A stretch of 64,000 nt of DNA from an uncultured delta proteobacterium (GCA_963827685.1 CAWHBU010000003.1:896001-960000), one strand, 5' to 3'; shown: positions 13,874-22,726, numbered from the stretch's first letter. Made by a program: numbers and translations. The notes: a model not told the origin generated them from the letters alone.

Positions 13874-15115
13874 CTATTGCATCTTGGCCCGACACGCCAA
13901 AGCAGTGCCTACCGGCAGGCAGGCGTTGCAGGATATACATTCCGCCTTGTCTGGTCCCTCTCCGGATCGCCAAAGGATGGGGAGATCCGGCTGGCGGATA
14001 AGGGGCCTGGACATTGAGACGAAATCCGCCGCCTTTGAAGTCAACACTTCTTCGATTTTACTAAATGACCTGAGCCCACCCACCAGGATGACCGTAGCGT
14101 TCGTCTTTTCTTTGAGCGCCTTGCCCCCCTGTAGGAAGTAGGCTTCTTGATCCTGAGCCTTGATGCCAGTCCGCGACTCGGGAACCATCACAGGAAGCCA
14201 GCCCAGCTCCTCCTTCTTCCGGGTCACTGCCTCCCACATGCCTCCGCTGGTCTCAATAGCGGCGAACCCAACCTCTGAGAGCATTTTCCCCACCCGGACC
14301 GCTTCATTGAGGTCTACACCTCCAGGAAGGAAGTCTGTGGTGTTTATTTTGATCAAGATGGGAAAACGATCACCGACCTTCCTTCTGGCGCGTTGATAGA
14401 TATCTTTAATAATCCTGGTCCGATTCTCAGTCGAACCTCCGTATTGATCCTCACGTTGATTGGTCCGTGGCGACAAAAAAGTGCTTAAAAGATAGCCGTG
14501 AGCAGCATGTAATTGAACCCCGTCAAAACCAGCCTCTTGTGCCCGCCGTACGCCCTCGGCAAAGGCCTCGATGATTTCGTTTATTTCGTCCAGGGTCAAC
14601 GCCCTTGGCGTCCGACCAAAGGTAGCATCGTAGACCGCGGATGGCGCGGTTGGCTCCACCACAGGGGGCGCTTCTCTCGGAGGTGCCATGACCTCAGGGT
14701 GCTTTTGAATATAAGCCAAAAAGGCTGGCGGGAGTACCGGCATTAATTTGGCAGCGTCTTCTCGATGAATGACCTGCCTTCCAGGATGGACCAATTGCAG
14801 CATCACCCTGCAGTCCGGAGCAGCTTCGTGCACTGCCTGTGGGATCTTTCGAAGACTCGCGATGAAATCGTCGTTATCCGCCCGTATGCTGAGATCGGGT
14901 GCCAGCGCCTTGGAGTATACGCCCGCGTAGCCGGTGATTATGAGACCCACACCCCCTTTGGCCAAAGTACCGTAAAGGTCAACCAAAAAGTCCGATACCT
15001 CACCTTTACTTGTGGCTGCGCTCTCGTAGGTGGCCGAACGAACTAAACGATTTTTGATTTCGAGCTGTCCAATGCGTGCCGGAGTGAAGACAATCGAGTC
15101 CTTTCTGATAACCAT
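13874..15115 (-). CDS. NADH:flavin oxidoreductase (Old Yellow Enzyme family)
   Basis: KNRLVRSAT, GFDGVQLHAAHGYL, NQREDQYGGS, RPLIRQP, C-terminal CISCNAC. Confidence 0.93.
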   Translation of the reverse strand: MVIRKDSIVFTPARIGQLEIKNRLVRSATYESAATSKGEVSDFLVDLYGTLAKGGVGLIITGYAGVYSKALAPDLSIRADNDDFIASLRKIPQAVHEAAPDCRVMLQLVHPGRQVIHREDAAKLMPVLPPAFLAYIQKHPEVMAPPREAPPVVEPTAPSAVYDATFGRTPRALTLDEINEIIEAFAEGVRRAQEAGFDGVQLHAAHGYLLSTFLSPRTNQREDQYGGSTENRTRIIKDIYQRARRKVGDRFPILIKINTTDFLPGGVDLNEAVRVGKMLSEVGFAAIETSGGMWEAVTRKKEELGWLPVMVPESRTGIKAQDQEAYFLQGGKALKEKTNATVILVGGLRSFSKIEEVLTSKAADFVSMSRPLIRQPDLPILWRSGEGPDKAECISCNACLPVGTALACRAKMQ

Positions 15116-15132
15116 ATCCCCTCCTTGGATTT

Positions 15133-15432
15133 TTAACCCATTCCAATTGCTTTAAGAGCTTCCTTAGCTTCAAGCCATATGTTTAAAGAATAGGTGAGGC
15201 CAGGCACCCCATAATATTTTGTGTAACGGGCAGTGAGAACCTCCATCGCCGCTGAAACTTTGGATTTGTCGAACTCATAAATAACAATGGATTTAATTCC
15301 CGCCCCTACTTCGCTGCTGACATAAGGTCCTTTCATGGTTATGTATGCAGGTAGAGGGGGTTGCTCAATAAAACGCTTAGCGTGTTCTTTTACACTTTCC
15401 GGGGGATACGACAAAATACCTATGATAACCAT
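15133..15432 (-). CDS. Small hypothetical protein
   Basis: 99 aa from ATG after AGGAGG; co-oriented with the OYE gene. Confidence 0.75.
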   Translation of the reverse strand: MVIIGILSYPPESVKEHAKRFIEQPPLPAYITMKGPYVSSEVGAGIKSIVIYEFDKSKVSAAMEVLTARYTKYYGVPGLTYSLNIWLEAKEALKAIGMG

Positions 15433-15777
15433 TTTTAACCTCCTTTTCTGTGGCAAAGAAATAGATGAGTTCATTTAATCGGACTAAAATCCCGAACATC
15501 AAAAAAGTATGCCCCCAAGAAGTCATAGCAACCCCTTAGAGGCTTCATATGGGCATCTTGTGATAACCCCATTTCATACGGCACCCAAGAAGGTTAGAGG
15601 TTAAGTTGTAAGGTTAATTAGGGACAGGTGGGAAATACTATAAATACACCATACTCTCATCTGCATGGAAAATCAAGGGAAAAATTCCATCCATAATTTA
15701 CCCCATATTGCTGATTTTCGTTTGAAATGTTGCATAGAAGGGCAGAAATCGAAAAACAAGATTACAGTCAACTATTT

Positions 15778-16969
15778 TTATATAGCCTCCTTTACATTGA
15801 AACATGTTCGCTGAGAAAGCATTGCAAAGATCACTCGAATGAGTTTATGAGCTACAGCAAATAAGGCTTTTTGAGGGGGGAGTCCTTCCTTCCTTCTTTC
15901 TCCTCAGGAAATAGGCTTTAAAGAAAACATTTTGAGACACCACAGAGGTCGTCATAAGATAAATCGCTCTTCTTAAATGCCGATTGCCTCGTTTCGACAG
16001 TTTGCTGGCACCCAGAAATTTCCCTGACTGATGAATCGAAGGATCCAATCCCGCAAAGGCAATCAGCTTCTTAGAAGAAGTAAAATTCTTCACCTCCCCC
16101 ACTTCCGCAAGAAAAGGGACAGCGGTATTTGGACCTACTCCCTTGATCGATTGGAGGATCTTCAAATCTTCTACTCTCGTCGCTTTGCATAAGTCGGTCA
16201 GAAGTTTAGTCAATCCCTCCATCCGCTCTTGAAGATGTAACAAGGTGGCAATCTTCCCTTGAACAATGACCTCTTTTGCTGGACTCGCCACGGCCACGGA
16301 ACTCTGGGCCGCCTTAACGATATCCTCCGCCGTAAACGTCAGTTTGTCCCCCACATAGGGCCCCCTCAACGCCTTTGCGATCGCCTTCCGTTTCGCCCCT
16401 CTCACCAAACGAGCCGATGGATACTGCTGCAAAAAACGAAGCATCACACCTGTATAGAGATTCCCGATGGATTCAAGCTCCGGAAAGATCGTTCTCAGTA
16501 CCCTCTTGATCTCTACCTTGGTCGCTGAAATGAGATGACAGAGTGACTCCCTTTCTCGGGACAGATCCCTCAGATCCTGATGATCTTGGGAAATAGAGAA
16601 TTGCGAAATCTCTTCATGGTGATCCAAAAGAAATCTCGCGATCGTCAGAGCGTCCTTTTTATCCGTCTTCGTTTTCCTCAGGGAAAGCTTCGCAAAATTG
16701 GAAATCAACAGAGGATTCACCACGACCGTACGGATTCCTTGGGAACTAAGAAACGAGAAAAGATTGATATGATAGCACCCGGTAGACTCCATGGCCACGA
16801 TCATCTGATCCAGTCTCTCACCATGAGAAGAAAGGGCCTTCAGGAACTCTGAAAACCCATGGGAGTTCATTTCATAAGTCCCCGAGAAATGCCCTTTGCC
16901 CTCCTCATCCAGGCCAGCTGCAGAGAAGAAATCCTTTGAAACATCCGCTCCAACCAAAAGCTTATACAT
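15778..16969 (-). pseudogene. IS110 DEDD recombinase with a C-terminal frameshift
   Basis: GADVSKD, MESTG, KTDKKDA, HQSG. Extra 4-nt unit in AAGGAAGGAAGG near 15885 shifts off the tail LPPQKALFAVAHKLIRVIFAML. Confidence 0.85.
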
Positions 16970-16984
16970 CTTTCTCCCTCCTTT

Positions 16985-17145
16985 CCTGAATCGGCAGGAC
17001 AATGCCTCCCAACCAAACCTCCACCGTGACCAGGGTTCACAGACCCAATCAACCTATTAGGGTTAAGGGAGGCAGGGAACACACTGTACTAAGGGTTCTC
17101 AGACCCAGGAAGTAGTTCGTTCTCCTGCCTTTCCAATCTCTGATT
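16985..17145 (-). ncRNA. Putative bridge RNA of IS110 element 1 (ends approximate)
   Basis: Two loops, each split by a GGGTC-Nx-GAACCC hairpin; target guides ACTTCCT and TACAG match the flanks. Confidence 0.75.
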
Positions 17146-17267
17146 CTTCTATAACACAATTGTTAGTAGGAGGAAGTTATCTTCAGAAAGAAGGATGAGG
17201 ATTTTATCTTCAATTCAGGCTGACCTGCGTTTATGGGTAGGCCGAAGACCAAAGATGGGAAGAAATC

Positions 17268-19307
17268 TTATCTCCTTCTAATCTTCATTGCAGAAAGGTA
17301 TACGGCTACTCCCACAATAAGAAATAAACCAACTACCATTCCAAAGGCTATCCCTGTCAAATAGGTGCCCCTGGATAGGAGCGCAATAGGATTCCAGCTC
17401 GGTTCTCTGATAATTCGACCAAGTTTCCCGCTATATTTTTCAGGAATGTCGGGAATCCCATCGCCTTTCTTGCCCGGAAAGCTCTTCACATACTCCATGA
17501 GGCAAACCCACTCCTTGAGTTCCTGAATTCCAGGTTTTTCCTTATCTCTATCCACCCTTAACGGGAGCAGAAGATCAAAGGGATTGCCCTTTAAAAATTT
17601 TGTGGCGATTGCGTTTCCATTTCGATCCTTCGGGACAATTTCAAGAATACCATAGGTAAAACGACCCACAAATTTGAGAAAGGTCGCGTTATAGAGGTTG
17701 GCTGCAACTCTATAAAGGGTCTTATTCGATTCCGAATAATCGAGAGGTTCATATCCTTCCTCCTCACTTCCCATCAAGATATCCGTTACCCTGTCAAAGA
17801 TCACCCGATTAGGGTTGTATTTGAATCTTAATCCTGAAACCTGGAGAAAGTAGTTGCTCCCTTTTTTGGGATAGATGCTCGTCGACACCTCGAGGATCTT
17901 CTTAATCTCGTGAGCGTAGAGGTAACAAGTGATAAGAGGATATCCCATGGTATCCTCCCCTCTGCTGATCCCGAGCGGGATGGTGCGAAAGAGATCGCAC
18001 ACGGCTATTCTCCCTGTCTTCCCCTTGAGAAGATCATCACGGATCACTCCGTTTGATTCAATGGCAGCCACCACCTTGGTTACAGGATCCTTCTGGTCAT
18101 AATCCAATCGATTAATCGCCCATCGCATAGCATCCGTGATGAGGTTTCCTAAATTGCATTCCTCCTCCAGAAGTCGCAAGTCAAATTGTGTTTTTCCGAT
18201 TACCTCGTAGAAGCTCACATGAAGATCCTTGAGAAACTTCTCATTCACGATCCCAATGTAGGATTCGATTCTCTTTTGAATCTTCTCATCCCCGAGAATG
18301 GTATCATCGATATCCACCAGCCTATATCCTTTCAACTTTACCTTACCCTTTTCATAGGCGATATCAAGGACACCCACATGTTCCCCAAAGGCACCCGCTT
18401 GAACAATCATCGTTTCATTCACGATCAGAGGGGTTTTCAGTTTTGTATGGGTATGGCCGCTTACAATAATATCAATGCCTGGCACCTCCCTCGCCAATCG
18501 ATCATCTTCGGAGAGAGACTTTTTTTGTTGAATACCGCTGTGCGACAGACAGATGACCATATCGACCTTTTCCTTCTCTCTCAGTGTCTTGACCATTTCA
18601 CGAGAAGTGTCGATGGGATCCCTGAATTTGACAGGGGCTGCAAAGGGCGAGACCTCCGCCGCCTCTTTTCCCAATATCCCGTAAATCCCGATCCTGATTC
18701 CCTGCATTTCCTTGATGATATAAGGTTTTACGAGACCCAGGTTGAATATCTCTTCAAGCGTATCATCTTCACGGTTCTGTTTATCGAAAATGACATTCGA
18801 AAAAACAATCTCTGGCATTCCCCCTTTCTGATGAGCCGAAGTGAGCATTTTCGCCAACCCCGAAGGCATGAGATCAAATTCATGGTTCCCCAGAGTCACC
18901 ACGTCATATCCCATCTCTTTCAACAATCGCAGCTCCAGCCCTTCCTCGCGAGCCACCATATGGAAGAGCGAACCCATAAGGAAGTCGCCGGCGTCTAAGA
19001 CAAGAGTTGGATTCGTTCTCTTGGCCTTCTCCGATCTTATCGTTGCCGCTATCCGGGCCCAGCCACCTACCGTTGCGTCATCATGGGTTTTTAAAGGAGT
19101 GTAGTCAATGTTCGGTGCAAAGCCGAGAAGATGGGAATGAAGATCATTGGTATGTAGGATGGTGAGGAGCCTTTCCTCCCCAAGAACCCGTATAGGATTG
19201 AGAATGGTACCAATCACCAATATCCAAAGAAATGCCCTCATTCCTTTCAACTCCATCGAGGTGAGGAGAGAACAAAATCCCTTTGGCCGCCATGACATGG
19301 TTGTCAA
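17268..19307 (-). CDS. 5'-nucleotidase / UDP-sugar hydrolase family metallophosphoesterase; true start probably near 19241
   Basis: HTNDLHS, DAGD, GNHEFD, LSHSG, SGHTH, signal peptide and C-terminal TM anchor. Confidence 0.9.
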   Translation of the reverse strand: MTTMSWRPKGFCSLLTSMELKGMRAFLWILVIGTILNPIRVLGEERLLTILHTNDLHSHLLGFAPNIDYTPLKTHDDATVGGWARIAATIRSEKAKRTNPTLVLDAGDFLMGSLFHMVAREEGLELRLLKEMGYDVVTLGNHEFDLMPSGLAKMLTSAHQKGGMPEIVFSNVIFDKQNREDDTLEEIFNLGLVKPYIIKEMQGIRIGIYGILGKEAAEVSPFAAPVKFRDPIDTSREMVKTLREKEKVDMVICLSHSGIQQKKSLSEDDRLAREVPGIDIIVSGHTHTKLKTPLIVNETMIVQAGAFGEHVGVLDIAYEKGKVKLKGYRLVDIDDTILGDEKIQKRIESYIGIVNEKFLKDLHVSFYEVIGKTQFDLRLLEEECNLGNLITDAMRWAINRLDYDQKDPVTKVVAAIESNGVIRDDLLKGKTGRIAVCDLFRTIPLGISRGEDTMGYPLITCYLYAHEIKKILEVSTSIYPKKGSNYFLQVSGLRFKYNPNRVIFDRVTDILMGSEEEGYEPLDYSESNKTLYRVAANLYNATFLKFVGRFTYGILEIVPKDRNGNAIATKFLKGNPFDLLLPLRVDRDKEKPGIQELKEWVCLMEYVKSFPGKKGDGIPDIPEKYSGKLGRIIREPSWNPIALLSRGTYLTGIAFGMVVGLFLIVGVAVYLSAMKIRRR

Positions 19308-19588
19308 TCCTCAATTATGGGTTTTGATATACACCCCATTTTGCATTTTTGCCCGATAAAATCATTGGGAACGGTGTTATATTGCGTCAATATAATCTAC
19401 AAAGGAATTATTCAGATGGGCCTGGAGTATATCCCCGCTATCCGTTTGAGGTTGTAATATACACCTTTTTTAGGGTTTTGGGAAATGAATAGTCCAGCAA
19501 GAAGTCCTCTTTTTTCCAAATCCCGCCGATCAAAAAAGCCATGTTAAGGCTTTCACCTCCTACTCATCAAGTATGTTATAAGGGCATG

Positions 19589-19775
19589 ACATAATGAATG
19601 GGTAAAGCCATTCAAGAGGAAGGGGCAGGAGGACTTGATTTTCACCTGGGTCATTGAATCCTTTTTGTAGTGTGTCCCCTGCCTCCCCAAACCCTGATAG
19701 GTTGGTTGGGTCTAAAGAACCCTTGTTATGATGGAGGTTTGGTGGGGAGGCTCATCCTGCCTATTCTCTAACAAT
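19589..19775 (+). ncRNA. Putative bridge RNA of IS110 element 2 (ends approximate)
   Basis: 5' hairpin TGAATGG-GTAAAG-CCATTCA and two guide loops; target guides TTTCACCT and GTAG match the flanks. Confidence 0.75.
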
Positions 19776-19794
19776 TTAAAAAGGAGGTGTAACA

Positions 19795-20988
19795 GTGTCG
19801 ACACTTTTCGTTGGGATTGACGTTTCTAAGGATTATGCTTCAGCTCAAGGGTTAGATCGTGAAGGGAAGAAACTCTTTTATCTTGAGTTTTCAATGGATG
19901 GAGAGGGATTTTCTCGGTTTCTGGACAGGGTGAAGGCCCATTGTGGGAATCTTTCAGAGGTTACCGTGGCGATGGAATCCACGGGTTGTTACCACATCAA
20001 TCTATTTTCCTTTCTTTCTTCGGAAGGGATTCCCTGTGTGGTGATCAACCCTCTGCTGATTAGCAATTTTGCCAGGTTATCTTTAAGGAAGACCAAGACG
20101 GATAAGAAGGATGCTCTTACCATTGCTCAGTTCCTTTTGGCTCACAAAGATTCCCTTTCCAAGGTCGCGTTTTCACAGAATAGTCAGGATCTCAAGGACC
20201 TGGCCAGAGAGCGAGAATCTCTGACGGTGATGATCTCGGGGTTAAAGAATGACATCCGGAGGCTCCTCAAGATGACTTTTCCGGAGCTGGAGCATCGGTG
20301 TAAGATCTTTACGGAGACGATGCTCCACGTTCTGATCAAGTTTCCTTCGGCCAGGACCCTAACAGCGGCAAAGCCCAAAGAGATTGCCAAGGCCCTGATC
20401 CATGTCGAAGGGAAAAGGAAACGAGTATTGATCAGTGCCGAAGAGATTATTCAAATGGCCAAGGCCTCTGTGGCCACTGACAGTGCAGCCAAGGAACTAA
20501 TCCTCTCAGAGAAGATTTCCACCCTTCTTTATCTCGAAGAGAAGAGGAAAAAGATCACAGGGGTATTGGTGAAGACCTGCCAGTCGATGAGAGTGGAGGA
20601 TCTCGAGATTATCACCTCCATCGATGGGATCAAGCAGATTAACGGTTCTACTTTTTTAGCGGAGTTGGGAGAGATGAACCATTTCAAATCCCACAAGCAT
20701 GTGATTGCTTTTGCAGGGCTTGATCCCTCCATTCACCAGTCAGGTCAATATGAGGGAATCAGCAGAATATCCAAGAGAGGAAATCGTCACCTAAGACGAG
20801 TGATTTTCCTTATGACCACTTGTGTGGTAAGGAGCAATAATATTTTCAGGCAATATTTTCTTAAAAGGAAGGCAGAAGGATTACCGCCTAAAAAAGCAAT
20901 TCTTGCCACGGCTCATAAATTGCTGAGGGTCCTTTTTGCCATGCTAACAACTAAATCTTACTTTCAGAAGGAGGTGGTCGAAGTATAG
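19795..20988 (+). CDS. IS110 DEDD recombinase/transposase, intact
   Basis: GIDVSKD, MESTG, KTDKKDA, HQSG, AHKLLRV; GTG start after AAGGAGG. Confidence 0.95.
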   Translation: MSTLFVGIDVSKDYASAQGLDREGKKLFYLEFSMDGEGFSRFLDRVKAHCGNLSEVTVAMESTGCYHINLFSFLSSEGIPCVVINPLLISNFARLSLRKTKTDKKDALTIAQFLLAHKDSLSKVAFSQNSQDLKDLARERESLTVMISGLKNDIRRLLKMTFPELEHRCKIFTETMLHVLIKFPSARTLTAAKPKEIAKALIHVEGKRKRVLISAEEIIQMAKASVATDSAAKELILSEKISTLLYLEEKRKKITGVLVKTCQSMRVEDLEIITSIDGIKQINGSTFLAELGEMNHFKSHKHVIAFAGLDPSIHQSGQYEGISRISKRGNRHLRRVIFLMTTCVVRSNNIFRQYFLKRKAEGLPPKKAILATAHKLLRVLFAMLTTKSYFQKEVVEV

Positions 20989-21207
20989 TTGACTACTACT
21001 TTTCAATCCAGGATAATCCCCAAAGCCGACGATTACGGGCTGAAATCAAGTACTTCAATACAAAAGATGAAAACCATATCGAAACATTTTTACCTGCTTA
21101 AAAACAGAAGATAGATAGCAGATATTCAAACTTCTGCGATATCATAATTCATGGTCTTCTCCCGTTTGAGCCCTTACGGTGTCTAATAGGATTGAGTTAC
21201 TCCGATA

Positions 21208-21238
21208 CGGGGACGGGTTTCAAAACCCGCCCCTGTAC
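21208..21238. repeat. REP-like palindrome / terminator downstream of the groEL fragment
   Basis: GGGACGGGTTT-CA-AAACCCGCCCC. Confidence 0.55.
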
Positions 21239-21244
21239 TGCCTT

Positions 21245-21526
21245 TTAGTACTCCGGAGGCATAGGTGGGGGCGGTGTCTCCTTTTTCGGTTTCTCAGCCA
21301 CAACCGCCTCTGAGGTGATCAAAAGAGAGGCCACGCTGGCCGCATTCTGTAAGGCTAACCTCACAACCTTCGTTGGGTCGATGATCCCTGTCTCCATCAT
21401 ATTTACATACTCTTATTTATCGGCATTTAATCCGAAGGCCCCTTTCTCCTGTTTCACCTTCTCCACCGCTACGGAGCCTTCCTTCCCGGCGTTCTCAGCT
21501 ATCTGACGAATGGGTTCAAGGGCCCT
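21245..21526 (-). pseudogene. groL: 3'-terminal fragment of groEL
   Basis: [19 protein letters not shown]...[27 protein letters not shown]...PMPPEY-stop; no 5' part. Confidence 0.88.
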
Positions 21527-21643
21527 CAAGCCGCCAGCCTAAGGGTAGTTAGTTAAACGTCTATCTAATTTCGATGAAAGGATTCTCTCATCAGGCGTTC
21601 CTTTGGGGTCGGTTGACCGGATAGAGGGTTGAGGTAATGTTTT

Positions 21644-22726
21644 TCATAAAGCACGATCCATTAATGGAAGTGAAATTCCAAATGACTCACCAAGGACCGC
21701 CAACTCTTTTATCGTGGCCGGAACCAGAGGTATCCCATCTTTCAGCCGTTCTGTCTCGGTTCTCAATTCCGGTTCCCCAGGCATCAGAATCTCTGCGGCA
21801 TTCTGCGCTTTCGCGCTTTCTTTAATGCTTTTGATGTAACGGTCCATCTCTTTCTTAAAGTTTTCCCTTCCGATGAAGCAGTCTGGGTCGATGGCCATGA
21901 AGGAATGACAAGTGCCCTGAATACCCGTTTTATCCTCTTCATAGAGGCTTTTGATCTCTTTGGTCAGTTTGCCACCCGTGAGCACGGCGGTGAGCATTTC
22001 ATGGACCAGCACCATTCCATAGCCTTTATGGCCCCCCACCGGCGTCAGGGATCCCCCTCCTTCATACCCTTGATAGGGGTCGTCAGTCGGCAAGCCGTCT
22101 TTGTTAACGGCCCACCCCAGGGGAATTTTCTCCCCTTTTTTGCGGGCTAGGATGAGTTTCCCAGACGACACAACACTCAATGAAAAATCCAGAACTACAG
22201 GAGGGTATTGATCGGCGGGAATGGCATAAGCCATAGGATTATTGCCTATAATTCTCTCTCGTCCGCCCCAGGGGGACATCATGGGAGCAGAGTTGGAGAC
22301 GACGTAGCCGATGAAATCCTTCTGCAGAGCCATTATGGGGAAGAGGCCGGCCACGCCGAAGTGACCGCTGTCTTTCACCGAGACCCAACCGATGCCATAC
22401 TCTTCCGCCTTCGCGATCGCCTTCTCCATGCCCCGGTAGGCGGCGATATGTCCCATCGACCCGTGAGCTTCCAGGAAAACCGTGGGGCCTTTTTCCCTGA
22501 CGGCCGTCAGTTTGCACTCTTTGCGTACATACCCTTTCTGCAGCCTCAGGATATAAATAGGCAGGCGGGTGACGCCATGGGTTTCGATGCCCCTTAGGTC
22601 CGACCTTACCAGTAGGTCGGCTACAATCTCTGCATCGGCAGCGGGCACCCCTGCTTTCATGTAGGCCTGACAGCAGAAATCCTTAAGGTCGGCGAACAAA
22701 ACCCGCCGGACAGTATTTTTCTCCAT
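21644..22726 (-). CDS. Ldh_2 family (type II malate/L-lactate/ureidoglycolate) dehydrogenase
   Basis: DLRGIETHG, SGHFG, GNNP, GGHKGYG, PGE. Confidence 0.9.
   Translation of the reverse strand: MEKNTVRRVLFADLKDFCCQAYMKAGVPAADAEIVADLLVRSDLRGIETHGVTRLPIYILRLQKGYVRKECKLTAVREKGPTVFLEAHGSMGHIAAYRGMEKAIAKAEEYGIGWVSVKDSGHFGVAGLFPIMALQKDFIGYVVSNSAPMMSPWGGRERIIGNNPMAYAIPADQYPPVVLDFSLSVVSSGKLILARKKGEKIPLGWAVNKDGLPTDDPYQGYEGGGSLTPVGGHKGYGMVLVHEMLTAVLTGGKLTKEIKSLYEEDKTGIQGTCHSFMAIDPDCFIGRENFKKEMDRYIKSIKESAKAQNAAEILMPGEPELRTETERLKDGIPLVPATIKELAVLGESFGISLPLMDRAL

Follow-up and report, generated by a model that had tools for sequence, protein, structure and literature searches.

The window analysed here, a stretch of 64,000 nucleotides (nt) from an uncultured delta proteobacterium (GCA_963827685.1, CAWHBU010000003.1:896001-960000), carries two insertion sequences, elements 1 and 2, each with a recombinase gene and, in the non-coding left end upstream of it, a segment resembling a bridge RNA. 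We conclude that both belong to the IS110 group of insertion sequences and that RNA-guided ('bridge') recombination is very probably their mode of transposition. All positions are those of the whole 64,000-nt stretch, counted from its first letter; the host assembly consists of 14 contigs (5.2 Mb, 94.5% completeness, 8% contamination).

19557-20994, plus strand: element 2, a complete IS110-group insertion sequence; body at 19559-20992, core CT at 19557-19558 and 20993-20994
15766-17172, minus strand: element 1, an IS110-group insertion sequence; body at 15768-17170, core (AG on the plus strand) at 15766-15767 and 17171-17172
19795-20988, plus strand: recombinase of element 2, 397 amino acids (aa), with a GTG start behind an AAAGGAGGTG ribosome-binding site
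15845-16969, minus strand: recombinase frame of element 1, 374 aa to a premature stop, 55% identical to the element 2 recombinase
15883-15897, minus strand: (GGAA)3 run in element 1, where intact relatives have (GGAA)2, from frame comparison and the alignment with L033, L037, L028, L034 and L039

The two elements are inverted relative to each other, with their left ends pointing inward. Both start with CCTACT and end with ATAGTTGA. With a slash marking the core-element or core-flank border, the junctions of element 2 read ...ctttcac-CT/CCTAC on the left and ...ATAGTTGA-CT/actac on the right, and those of element 1 aacttc-CT/CCTAC and ATAGTTGA-CT/gtaatc. The left non-coding end of element 2 extends over 236 nt (19559-19794), its right end over 4 nt (20989-20992). 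A long left and a short right end, the lack of long terminal inverted repeats and a core at both junctions are traits of the IS110 group, and all are found here. The termini CT/CCTAC and ATAGTTGA/CT are kept in relatives: of 43 related loci, 34 carry ATAGTTGA, at L051 the only form found is the variant TAGCTGA, and eight gave no match. At L044 the right end is directly followed by CT and CCTAC on a 3.6-kb contig, which suggests a tandem or junction-like arrangement, and at L032 the core is absent at both junctions.

Both elements are multi-copy and sequence-specific in their insertion, as is usual for the IS110 group. The host genome contains three copies of element 2 over 1437 nt (two 100% and one 99.93% identical) and two copies of element 1, 100% identical over 1410 nt, the second of which lies on contig C1. 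These five copies occupy five different sites with exact shared termini: ..CTTTCAC-CT/../CT-ACTAC, ..ACTTCAC-CT/../CT-ACAAG and ..AATACAC-CT/../CT-ACAAA for element 2, and ..AACTTC-CT/../CT-GTAATC and ..TTCTTC-CT/../CT-GTACTC for element 1. Thus, CAC-CT-AC is common to the three element 2 sites and TTC-CT-GTA to the two element 1 sites. Unoccupied paralogous sites in the host genome continue straight across the inferred boundaries. Similarly, contigs from other metagenomes track the flank to 15767 or 19558 and then run on as uninterrupted target. Contigs of another run match the left flank to 19558 and proceed with ACAAATC, which looks like an unoccupied element 2 target, and a contig of run X4, linking 15759 to 17171 with 6 other letters between, looks like an empty element 1 site. 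A circle junction between right end and left end (RE-LE junction) was not seen in the contigs of four DNA runs, and a contig joint from 19558 to 21070, with only 21 letters on its shorter side, was too weak to use.

Both proteins are DEDD-RuvC/Tnp serine recombinases of the IS110 family. PF01548 (E 7.3e-39) and PF02371 (E 6.2e-25) are found in the element 2 protein and likewise in that of element 1, and the NCBIfam model NF033542 ('IS110 family RNA-guided transposase', cut-off 140) gives 242 bits for element 2 and 203 bits for element 1. The motifs GIDVSKD, AMESTG, KTDKKDA and HQSG are visible in the recombinase sequences and would be the counterparts of D11, E60, D102, D105 and S241 of IS621. 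The only relatives of the element 2 recombinase among solved structures are ISCro4 (9t56) and IS621 (8wt6). The ISCro4 transposase is the best match, with both domains aligned, but reaches only E 1.1e-15; the IS621 match (E 1.4e-15) covers residues 231-386, and the element 2 protein, with 397 aa, exceeds the 328-aa IS621 chain by about 70 aa. Since these matches reach only about E 1e-15, the clade is distant from the enzymes studied so far.

A two-loop RNA in the left ends

Both RNAs are matched by a covariance model, R1:

19620-19763, plus strand: bridge-RNA-like non-coding RNA of element 2, a target-binding stem-loop followed by a donor-binding stem-loop; R1 147.7 bits, E 7.5e-34
16991-17133, minus strand: bridge-RNA-like non-coding RNA of element 1; R1 154.4 bits, E 1.6e-35, alignment A3

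In each element the RNA, about 143 nt long, lies in the left end upstream of the recombinase. A profile hidden Markov model made from three host copies was used to find the RNA in 50 related loci, 43 of which have the same segment of about 145 nt directly upstream of the recombinase; the seven loci with no RNA match are at contig edges, fragmentary or very distant. After exclusion of two duplicates and two truncated copies, 42 non-redundant RNAs were aligned. Their RNAalifold consensus is composed of two stem-loops, in each of which a large internal loop encloses a short GGGU/ACCC hairpin, as expected of a bridge RNA encoded in the left end. Compensatory changes occur in 12 of its 27 pairs, and 99.0% of the cells pair, compared with 95.9% in shuffles. 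All five structure measures lie above every shuffle (0/500 reach the observed value), and controls with slid partners pair in only 34-65% of cases. The first loop is variable across the 42 RNAs and the second nearly invariant. A shared left-end scaffold with its greatest variation in the first loop had been proposed in a preliminary description of this DNA; the scaffold is indeed shared, with a mean column identity of 75% between the two left ends and the highest variability in the first loop, and the folding and alignment suggested there as a check yield a conserved two-loop RNA supported by covariation.

The near-invariant 3' UCCUGCC can also pair with the 5' GGCAGGA (columns 5-11 and 143-149 of A3, that is 19624-19630 with 19753-19759). 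This pairing is possible in 96% of cells and includes one compensatory A-U pair, in L039. In the resulting three-way junction 98.1% of cells pair, and the tandem arrangement of two stem-loops fits the alignment only slightly better; folded singly, both RNAs have this junction as their minimum-free-energy structure.

Two promoter-like signals are associated with the ends of element 2:

19574-19582, plus strand: extended -10-like box TGtTATAAG in the left end, read from the sequence
20989-20994, plus strand: right-end terminus TTGA plus core CT, giving the -35-like TTGACT, which a promoter scan picks as first hexamer

The counterpart box of element 1 is TGtTATAGA (17148-17156, minus strand), and a homologous TG(G/T)TATAA box is kept in the left ends of relatives. 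In an RE-LE circle, TTGACT and TGtTATAAG would be placed 18 nt apart, as far as can be read from the sequence, and could then act as a junction promoter like that described for IS110s. Among 23 sequencing runs, no RNA run containing this DNA was listed; by analogy with other IS110s, we infer that the RNAs are expressed and the elements active. TTGACT also combines with GATAAT in the flank (20989-21017, plus strand) into the best sigma-70-like match of the region (10/12, 17-nt spacer), possibly an outward-reading hybrid promoter, or chance.

Guides, flanks and donor ends

Within the two RNAs, the following target and donor guides can be recognized:

19640-19647, plus strand: left target guide of element 2, UUUCAC-CU (TTTCACCT in DNA), equal to the left flank plus core
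19664-19671, plus strand: right target guide of element 2, UUUGU-AG, with reverse complement CT-ACAAA; GTAG at 19667-19670, handshake U at 19671
17107-17113, minus strand: left target guide of element 1, ACUUC-CU; left flanks AACTTC-CT and TTCTTC-CT
17084-17090, minus strand: right target guide of element 1, AGUAC-AG, with reverse complement CT-GTACT; right flanks CT-GTAAT and CT-GTACT
19700-19707, plus strand: left donor guide of element 2, GGUUGG-UU, facing the right end AGTTGA-CT via G.T/U.G wobbles
19733-19737, plus strand: right donor guide of element 2, GGAG, with reverse complement CT-CC (core plus first left-end bases); donor-loop handshake G at 19737
17047-17054, minus strand: left donor guide of element 1, GGUUGA-UU, from donor-loop comparison
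17019-17022, minus strand: right donor guide of element 1, GGAG, from donor-loop comparison

In the target loop, the bases just 5' of the hairpin correspond to the left flank plus core, and those just 5' of the closing stem to the reverse complement of the core plus right flank. All five host insertion sites fit their guides in this way, the three right flanks of element 2 reading CT-ACTAC (window), CT-ACAAG and CT-ACAAA. Elements 1 and 2 share donor ends and donor loop and differ in target loop and target words.

The correspondence was then assessed over 48 copies (43 loci and the 5 host copies). Once 4 copies with no left flank and 11 with no right flank had been dropped and identical guide-flank pairs removed, 43 left and 34 right pairs were left; as control, flanks were shuffled among loci 2000 times. 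At positions -3 to -7, left guide and flank are identical in fractions of 0.98/0.91/0.88/0.67/0.53 of the pairs, against 0.57/0.41/0.44/0.40/0.37 after shuffling. On the right, positions +2 to +7 give 0.94/0.82/0.76/0.82/0.76/0.53 against 0.74/0.33/0.33/0.56/0.36/0.28. The observed identity was reached by 0/2000 shuffles at each position, except for 15/2000 at -7 and 3/2000 at +7. The mean number of identical non-core positions is 4.72 of 7 on the left (shuffled 3.03, maximum 3.72) and 3.71 of 5 on the right (shuffled 1.87, maximum 2.62). No signal appeared beyond -8 and +8 in this permutation test, so that, in addition to the core, the left guide would comprise about 5-6 nt and the right guide about 5 nt. 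Because relatedness among the loci inflates such tests, the argument is carried by the base-by-base identity over many distinct guide words, namely CACCT/CTACAA, TTCCT/CTGTAC, CACCT/CTCCTT, CTAC(T)/CTGAAA, CTCAC(A)/CAGAAA and others. The target loops thus spell their own flanks, except for the second core base on the left.

The donor loop, in turn, fits the joined ends of the element itself. The left donor guide (A/G)GTTGA-TT stands opposite AGTTGA-CT, with the first core base paired only as U.G; its commonest forms in the clade are AGGTTGATT (12/42) and AAGTTGATT (11/42). The right donor guide is GGAG, opposite CT-CC, in 38 of the 42 RNAs. The 4 loci that have a CA core all carry GGTG in its place, facing CA-CC, and their right target guides end in TG instead of AG. 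Contiguous matches of the right donor guide comprise only 4 bases; discontiguous pairing of this guide has been described (PMC11208160). The donor window TAGTTGA-CT-CCTACT is identical in elements 1 and 2, their left donor guides differ by one base and both have GGAG on the right.

The handshake positions fit as well; there, the base that follows each right guide on its 3' side would pair with position 7 of the opposite partner DNA and not with that of its own. In 30 of 38 loci, the donor-loop handshake base can form a Watson-Crick pair with the target base just before the core; of the others, seven (A-A) form one subgroup, with the same base in target and donor, and one has G-G. Directly after the right target guide, 41 of the 42 RNAs have U, opposite an invariant donor A.

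Most of what the preliminary description had proposed for these guides is borne out. The strings it quoted (TTTCACCT, GTAG, ACTTCCT at 17113-17107 and TACAG at 17088-17084) are all in place, and its central claim, two IS110 elements with guides matching their own insertion sites, agrees with the protein families (PF01548 and PF02371, NF033542) and with the fit at all five host sites. The covariation of guides and flanks among homologues, which it named as a check, holds at -3 to -7 and +2 to +7 (43 left and 34 right pairs). The second loop fits the shared donor junction if wobbles are allowed, as it had suggested, with U.G at the first core base, and the whole agrees with the published bridge-RNA architecture of IS110/IS621 (PMC11208160, PMC11208158). 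A right target guide does exist; its proposed length of 4-5 nt has to be corrected to about 7 nt, since covariation extends to +7.

The same left-end structure could in principle be a mere 5' leader controlling recombinase expression, with the protein alone selecting the target and the guide-flank identity arising as a by-product. Indeed, the start codon follows directly on the RNA, with no terminator-like site between them except a weak one at 19741-19761, and the pairing of 3' UCCUGCC with 5' GGCAGGA could alter the fold. On the other hand, a leader has no need to spell the flanks, whereas the identity tracks them base by base, in many guide classes, on both sides and with the strand logic of IS621, and the change of core from CT to CA is mirrored in both the right target guide and the right donor guide. 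We therefore consider a simple leader very improbable.

According to the favoured bridge-recombination mechanism, the element would excise as a circle, as inferred from IS621. The RE-LE junction would place TTGACT (-35) 18 nt upstream of TGtTATAAG (-10), which may drive the RNA. A recombinase tetramer would hold this RNA, which would pair with target and donor; the serine of the SG motif (316-317 of element 2) and the DEDD residues would cut beside the core, and the handshake bases would aid strand exchange.

Several observations weigh against this mechanism. At the window copy of element 2, the match to the 7-nt right guide is limited to CT-AC. Guides and flanks disagree at some loci, on the right (L008, L033, L044) or on the left (L025, L032); for L008 and L033, the mismatch between right flank and right guide may come from rearrangement between copies. 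At the second core base, the agreement of the left guides does not exceed that with shuffled flanks (at -1, 0.72 observed against 0.76 shuffled). The left guides ignore this base in two sublineages, since there the end of the left target guide differs from the core: in that with a CA core (L026, L030, L035, L036) the core is mirrored in both right guides, yet the left target guide ends in CT, and in one with a CT core (L012, L015-L019, L021, L047, L053) the left target guide ends in CA and the left donor guide in TC or TA. The genome shows no enrichment of perfect matches to the predicted 12-nt targets: 3 and 2 were counted, where shuffled motifs gave 0.7 and 1.3 (at most 5 and 4). When one mismatch is allowed, the numbers are 37 and 19, compared with 27.8 and 39.1. 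Accordingly, no claim is made here that the guides are directed to a high-copy word. A search of 15000-22000 with Rfam 15 gave 0 matches at E <= 1. Single-sequence folding energies are no better than those of shuffles (z -0.20 and -0.57), so the structural argument is one of covariation, not of energy. Finally, the recombinase of element 1 is frameshifted, in the window and in the 100% identical copy on contig C1 alike.

This frameshift is due to a 4-nt tandem duplication near the C-terminus, which replaces the last ~30 residues; in the restored frame, the stop would be at 15778-15780. Contigs of runs X2 and X8 have 4 nt or 1 nt fewer at the GGAA site, and a contig of run X1 spans it ungapped. 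Slippage at such a short tandem repeat could be reversible.

The lesion raises the question of whether element 2 alone is autonomous; element 1 would then be a frameshifted derivative, either inert or mobilized in trans. In both of its copies, the protein has lost the last ~30 residues to the GGAA duplication, and the identity of these copies over 1410 nt at different sites implies that the lesion was already present when element 1 moved or was copied. A route in trans is conceivable, for example with the element 2 recombinase loaded with the element 1 RNA, since the donor ends and loops of the two elements are nearly alike. However, both domains and all motifs of the element 1 recombinase lie upstream of the shift and its score still exceeds the cut-off, so that the truncated protein might work. 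Moreover, the two recombinases are only 55% identical, and neither element has been found at the other's type of target (0/3 element 2 copies at an element-1-type target, 0/2 element 1 copies at an element-2-type target). Autonomy of element 2 alone is thus a reading that we take seriously without favouring it.

Identical donor ends and near-identical donor loops imply that one recombinase could serve two differently aimed RNAs. A broader proposal builds on this: that the clade has a variant bridge-RNA design, with the GGCAGGA/UCCUGCC three-way junction and left guides that skip the second core base in some sublineages, and that through the shared donor one recombinase serves both RNAs and keeps element 1 mobile. 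As a whole, this combination seems unlikely.

The target repeat and the neighbourhood

The flanks of both elements (15547-15767 and 19495-19558) are copies of a dispersed intergenic repeat of the host, with 17 BLAST alignments in the genome, including the query's own place, mostly 73-92% identical. In an unoccupied unit on host contig C2 (699560-699960), words of the element 1 and element 2 target types are located about 60 nt apart on opposite strands, in the same relative geometry as in the window. The repeat has no Rfam match, and its reading as a sigma-54 or CRISPR-like sequence was not upheld on inspection.

An unrelated gene for a 5'-nucleotidase/metallophosphoesterase of 679 aa (17268-19307, minus strand) lies between the two elements, and the wider neighbourhood contains ordinary metabolic genes (Oxidored_FMN protein, Ldh_2, HpaB). 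As the elements flank this gene in inverted orientation, left ends inward, they might be taken for a composite transposon carrying it. We rejected this extremely improbable reading: complete junctions and a separate target word are found for each element, other copies of each are solitary elsewhere, and both flanks derive from the dispersed repeat that supplies the targets. A contig of run X2 covers 17209-19470 at 98% (43 other letters in 2262) and stops before both elements, and therefore provides no evidence of linkage.

Relatives and known systems

Including the host, 18 of 61 genomes searched have R1 matches; with the host excluded, they are found in 11/14 genomes of the same genus and 16/36 of the same family. 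The loci closest to element 2, with up to 69% identity, come from metagenome-assembled genomes titled Nitrospirota/Thermodesulfovibrionales, and those closest to the RNA of element 1 from such genomes titled Thermodesulfobacteriota/Syntrophaceae/'delta proteobacterium'. The deltaproteobacterial clade of the preliminary description is thus real as regards the latter loci, and too narrow as sole affiliation given the former. In literature on Nitrospirota, Nitrospirae or Thermodesulfovibrio, no IS110 element or bridge RNA occurred among the matches listed, which is not proof of an undescribed clade. Ten R1 matches in genomes G004 and G005 (loci L058-L061 among them) span only model positions 4-64. 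Their interpretation as orphan target-loop modules was rejected, as the four examined of the ten are cut by contig ends, about 10 nt away. Apparently, the contigs of these two genomes tend to end within the element, just behind the first stem-loop, a hint that it is present there in many copies.

The host genome contains seven RNA copies detected by R1, five of them within elements, and two weak antisense echoes. An orphan left end (C2:72640-72835, starting CT/CCTAC...) carries a complete RNA (L006:1497-1637, R1 151 bits), the hairpins of which show compensatory GGAUC/GAAUCC changes; no recombinase and no right end were found within 1.4 kb of it. A relic at C2:1198733-1198796 consists of the first, target-binding stem-loop only and diverges after CCCTGCCTC.

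The mechanism itself has been known since 2024, and both elements are further members of the IS621-type bridge-RNA systems. Durrant et al. 2024 (PMC11208160) reported covariation of non-coding RNA with target and donor over 5,511 and 2,201 pairs, and predicted bridge RNAs in 85.7% of IS110s. Since they showed this architecture across thousands of IS110s, the present elements are additions to a known kind. The same paper describes a variable first and a conserved second loop as well as the junction promoter, and catalysis and handshake pairing were described for IS621 by Hiraizumi et al. 2024 (PMC11208158).

With IS621, the elements share a recombinase with DEDD and Tnp domains, a CT core, an RNA in the long left end and a very short right end. 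Furthermore, they share a variable first and a conserved second internal loop, in which the 5' side matches the left DNA arm plus core and the 3' side complements the core plus right arm. The handshake positions and insertion into dispersed intergenic repeats are likewise common to both, and the putative -35 in the right end and -10 in the left end would correspond to those across the IS621 junction. Besides the distant and longer protein, the differences from IS621 lie in the right target guide, which is about 7 nt here and 4 nt there, with some orthologues having longer ones (PMC11208160), in the left donor guide, which meets the first core base only via U.G, and in the left guides of subgroups, which mismatch the second core base. 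In this clade, a closing helix may in addition form through the conserved 3' UCCUGCC.

IS1111-group/seekRNA elements have the same recombinase family and RNA-guided logic (PMC11208160; PMC13604230), but their RNA is encoded in the right end, which is long, and their subterminal inverted repeats are longer, in contrast to the left-end RNA and 4-nt right end found here. ISPpu9 and ISPpu10 of Pseudomonas putida also occur as several IS110 copies in repeated intergenic sequences of one genome, and ISPpu9 is reported to have extra stand-alone copies of its small RNA gene, comparable to the orphan RNA on C2. They differ in hosts and target repeats, and the ISPpu9 small RNA is described as being located downstream of the transposase.

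Within this known mechanism, which they leave unchanged, the two elements offer a compact, consistent natural example of a single donor scaffold combined with two target programmes within the same genome, and thereby natural material for a loop-swap experiment. The surrounding clade of about 40 loci is distant from IS621, and its guide-flank signal is clean; clades of this kind are a source from which new bridge recombinases can be developed.

Two further traces of the family occur on host contig C2: a very distant second IS110-family gene (566966-567994), 22% identical to the element 2 protein, and a 56-aa recombinase fragment (758703-758870).

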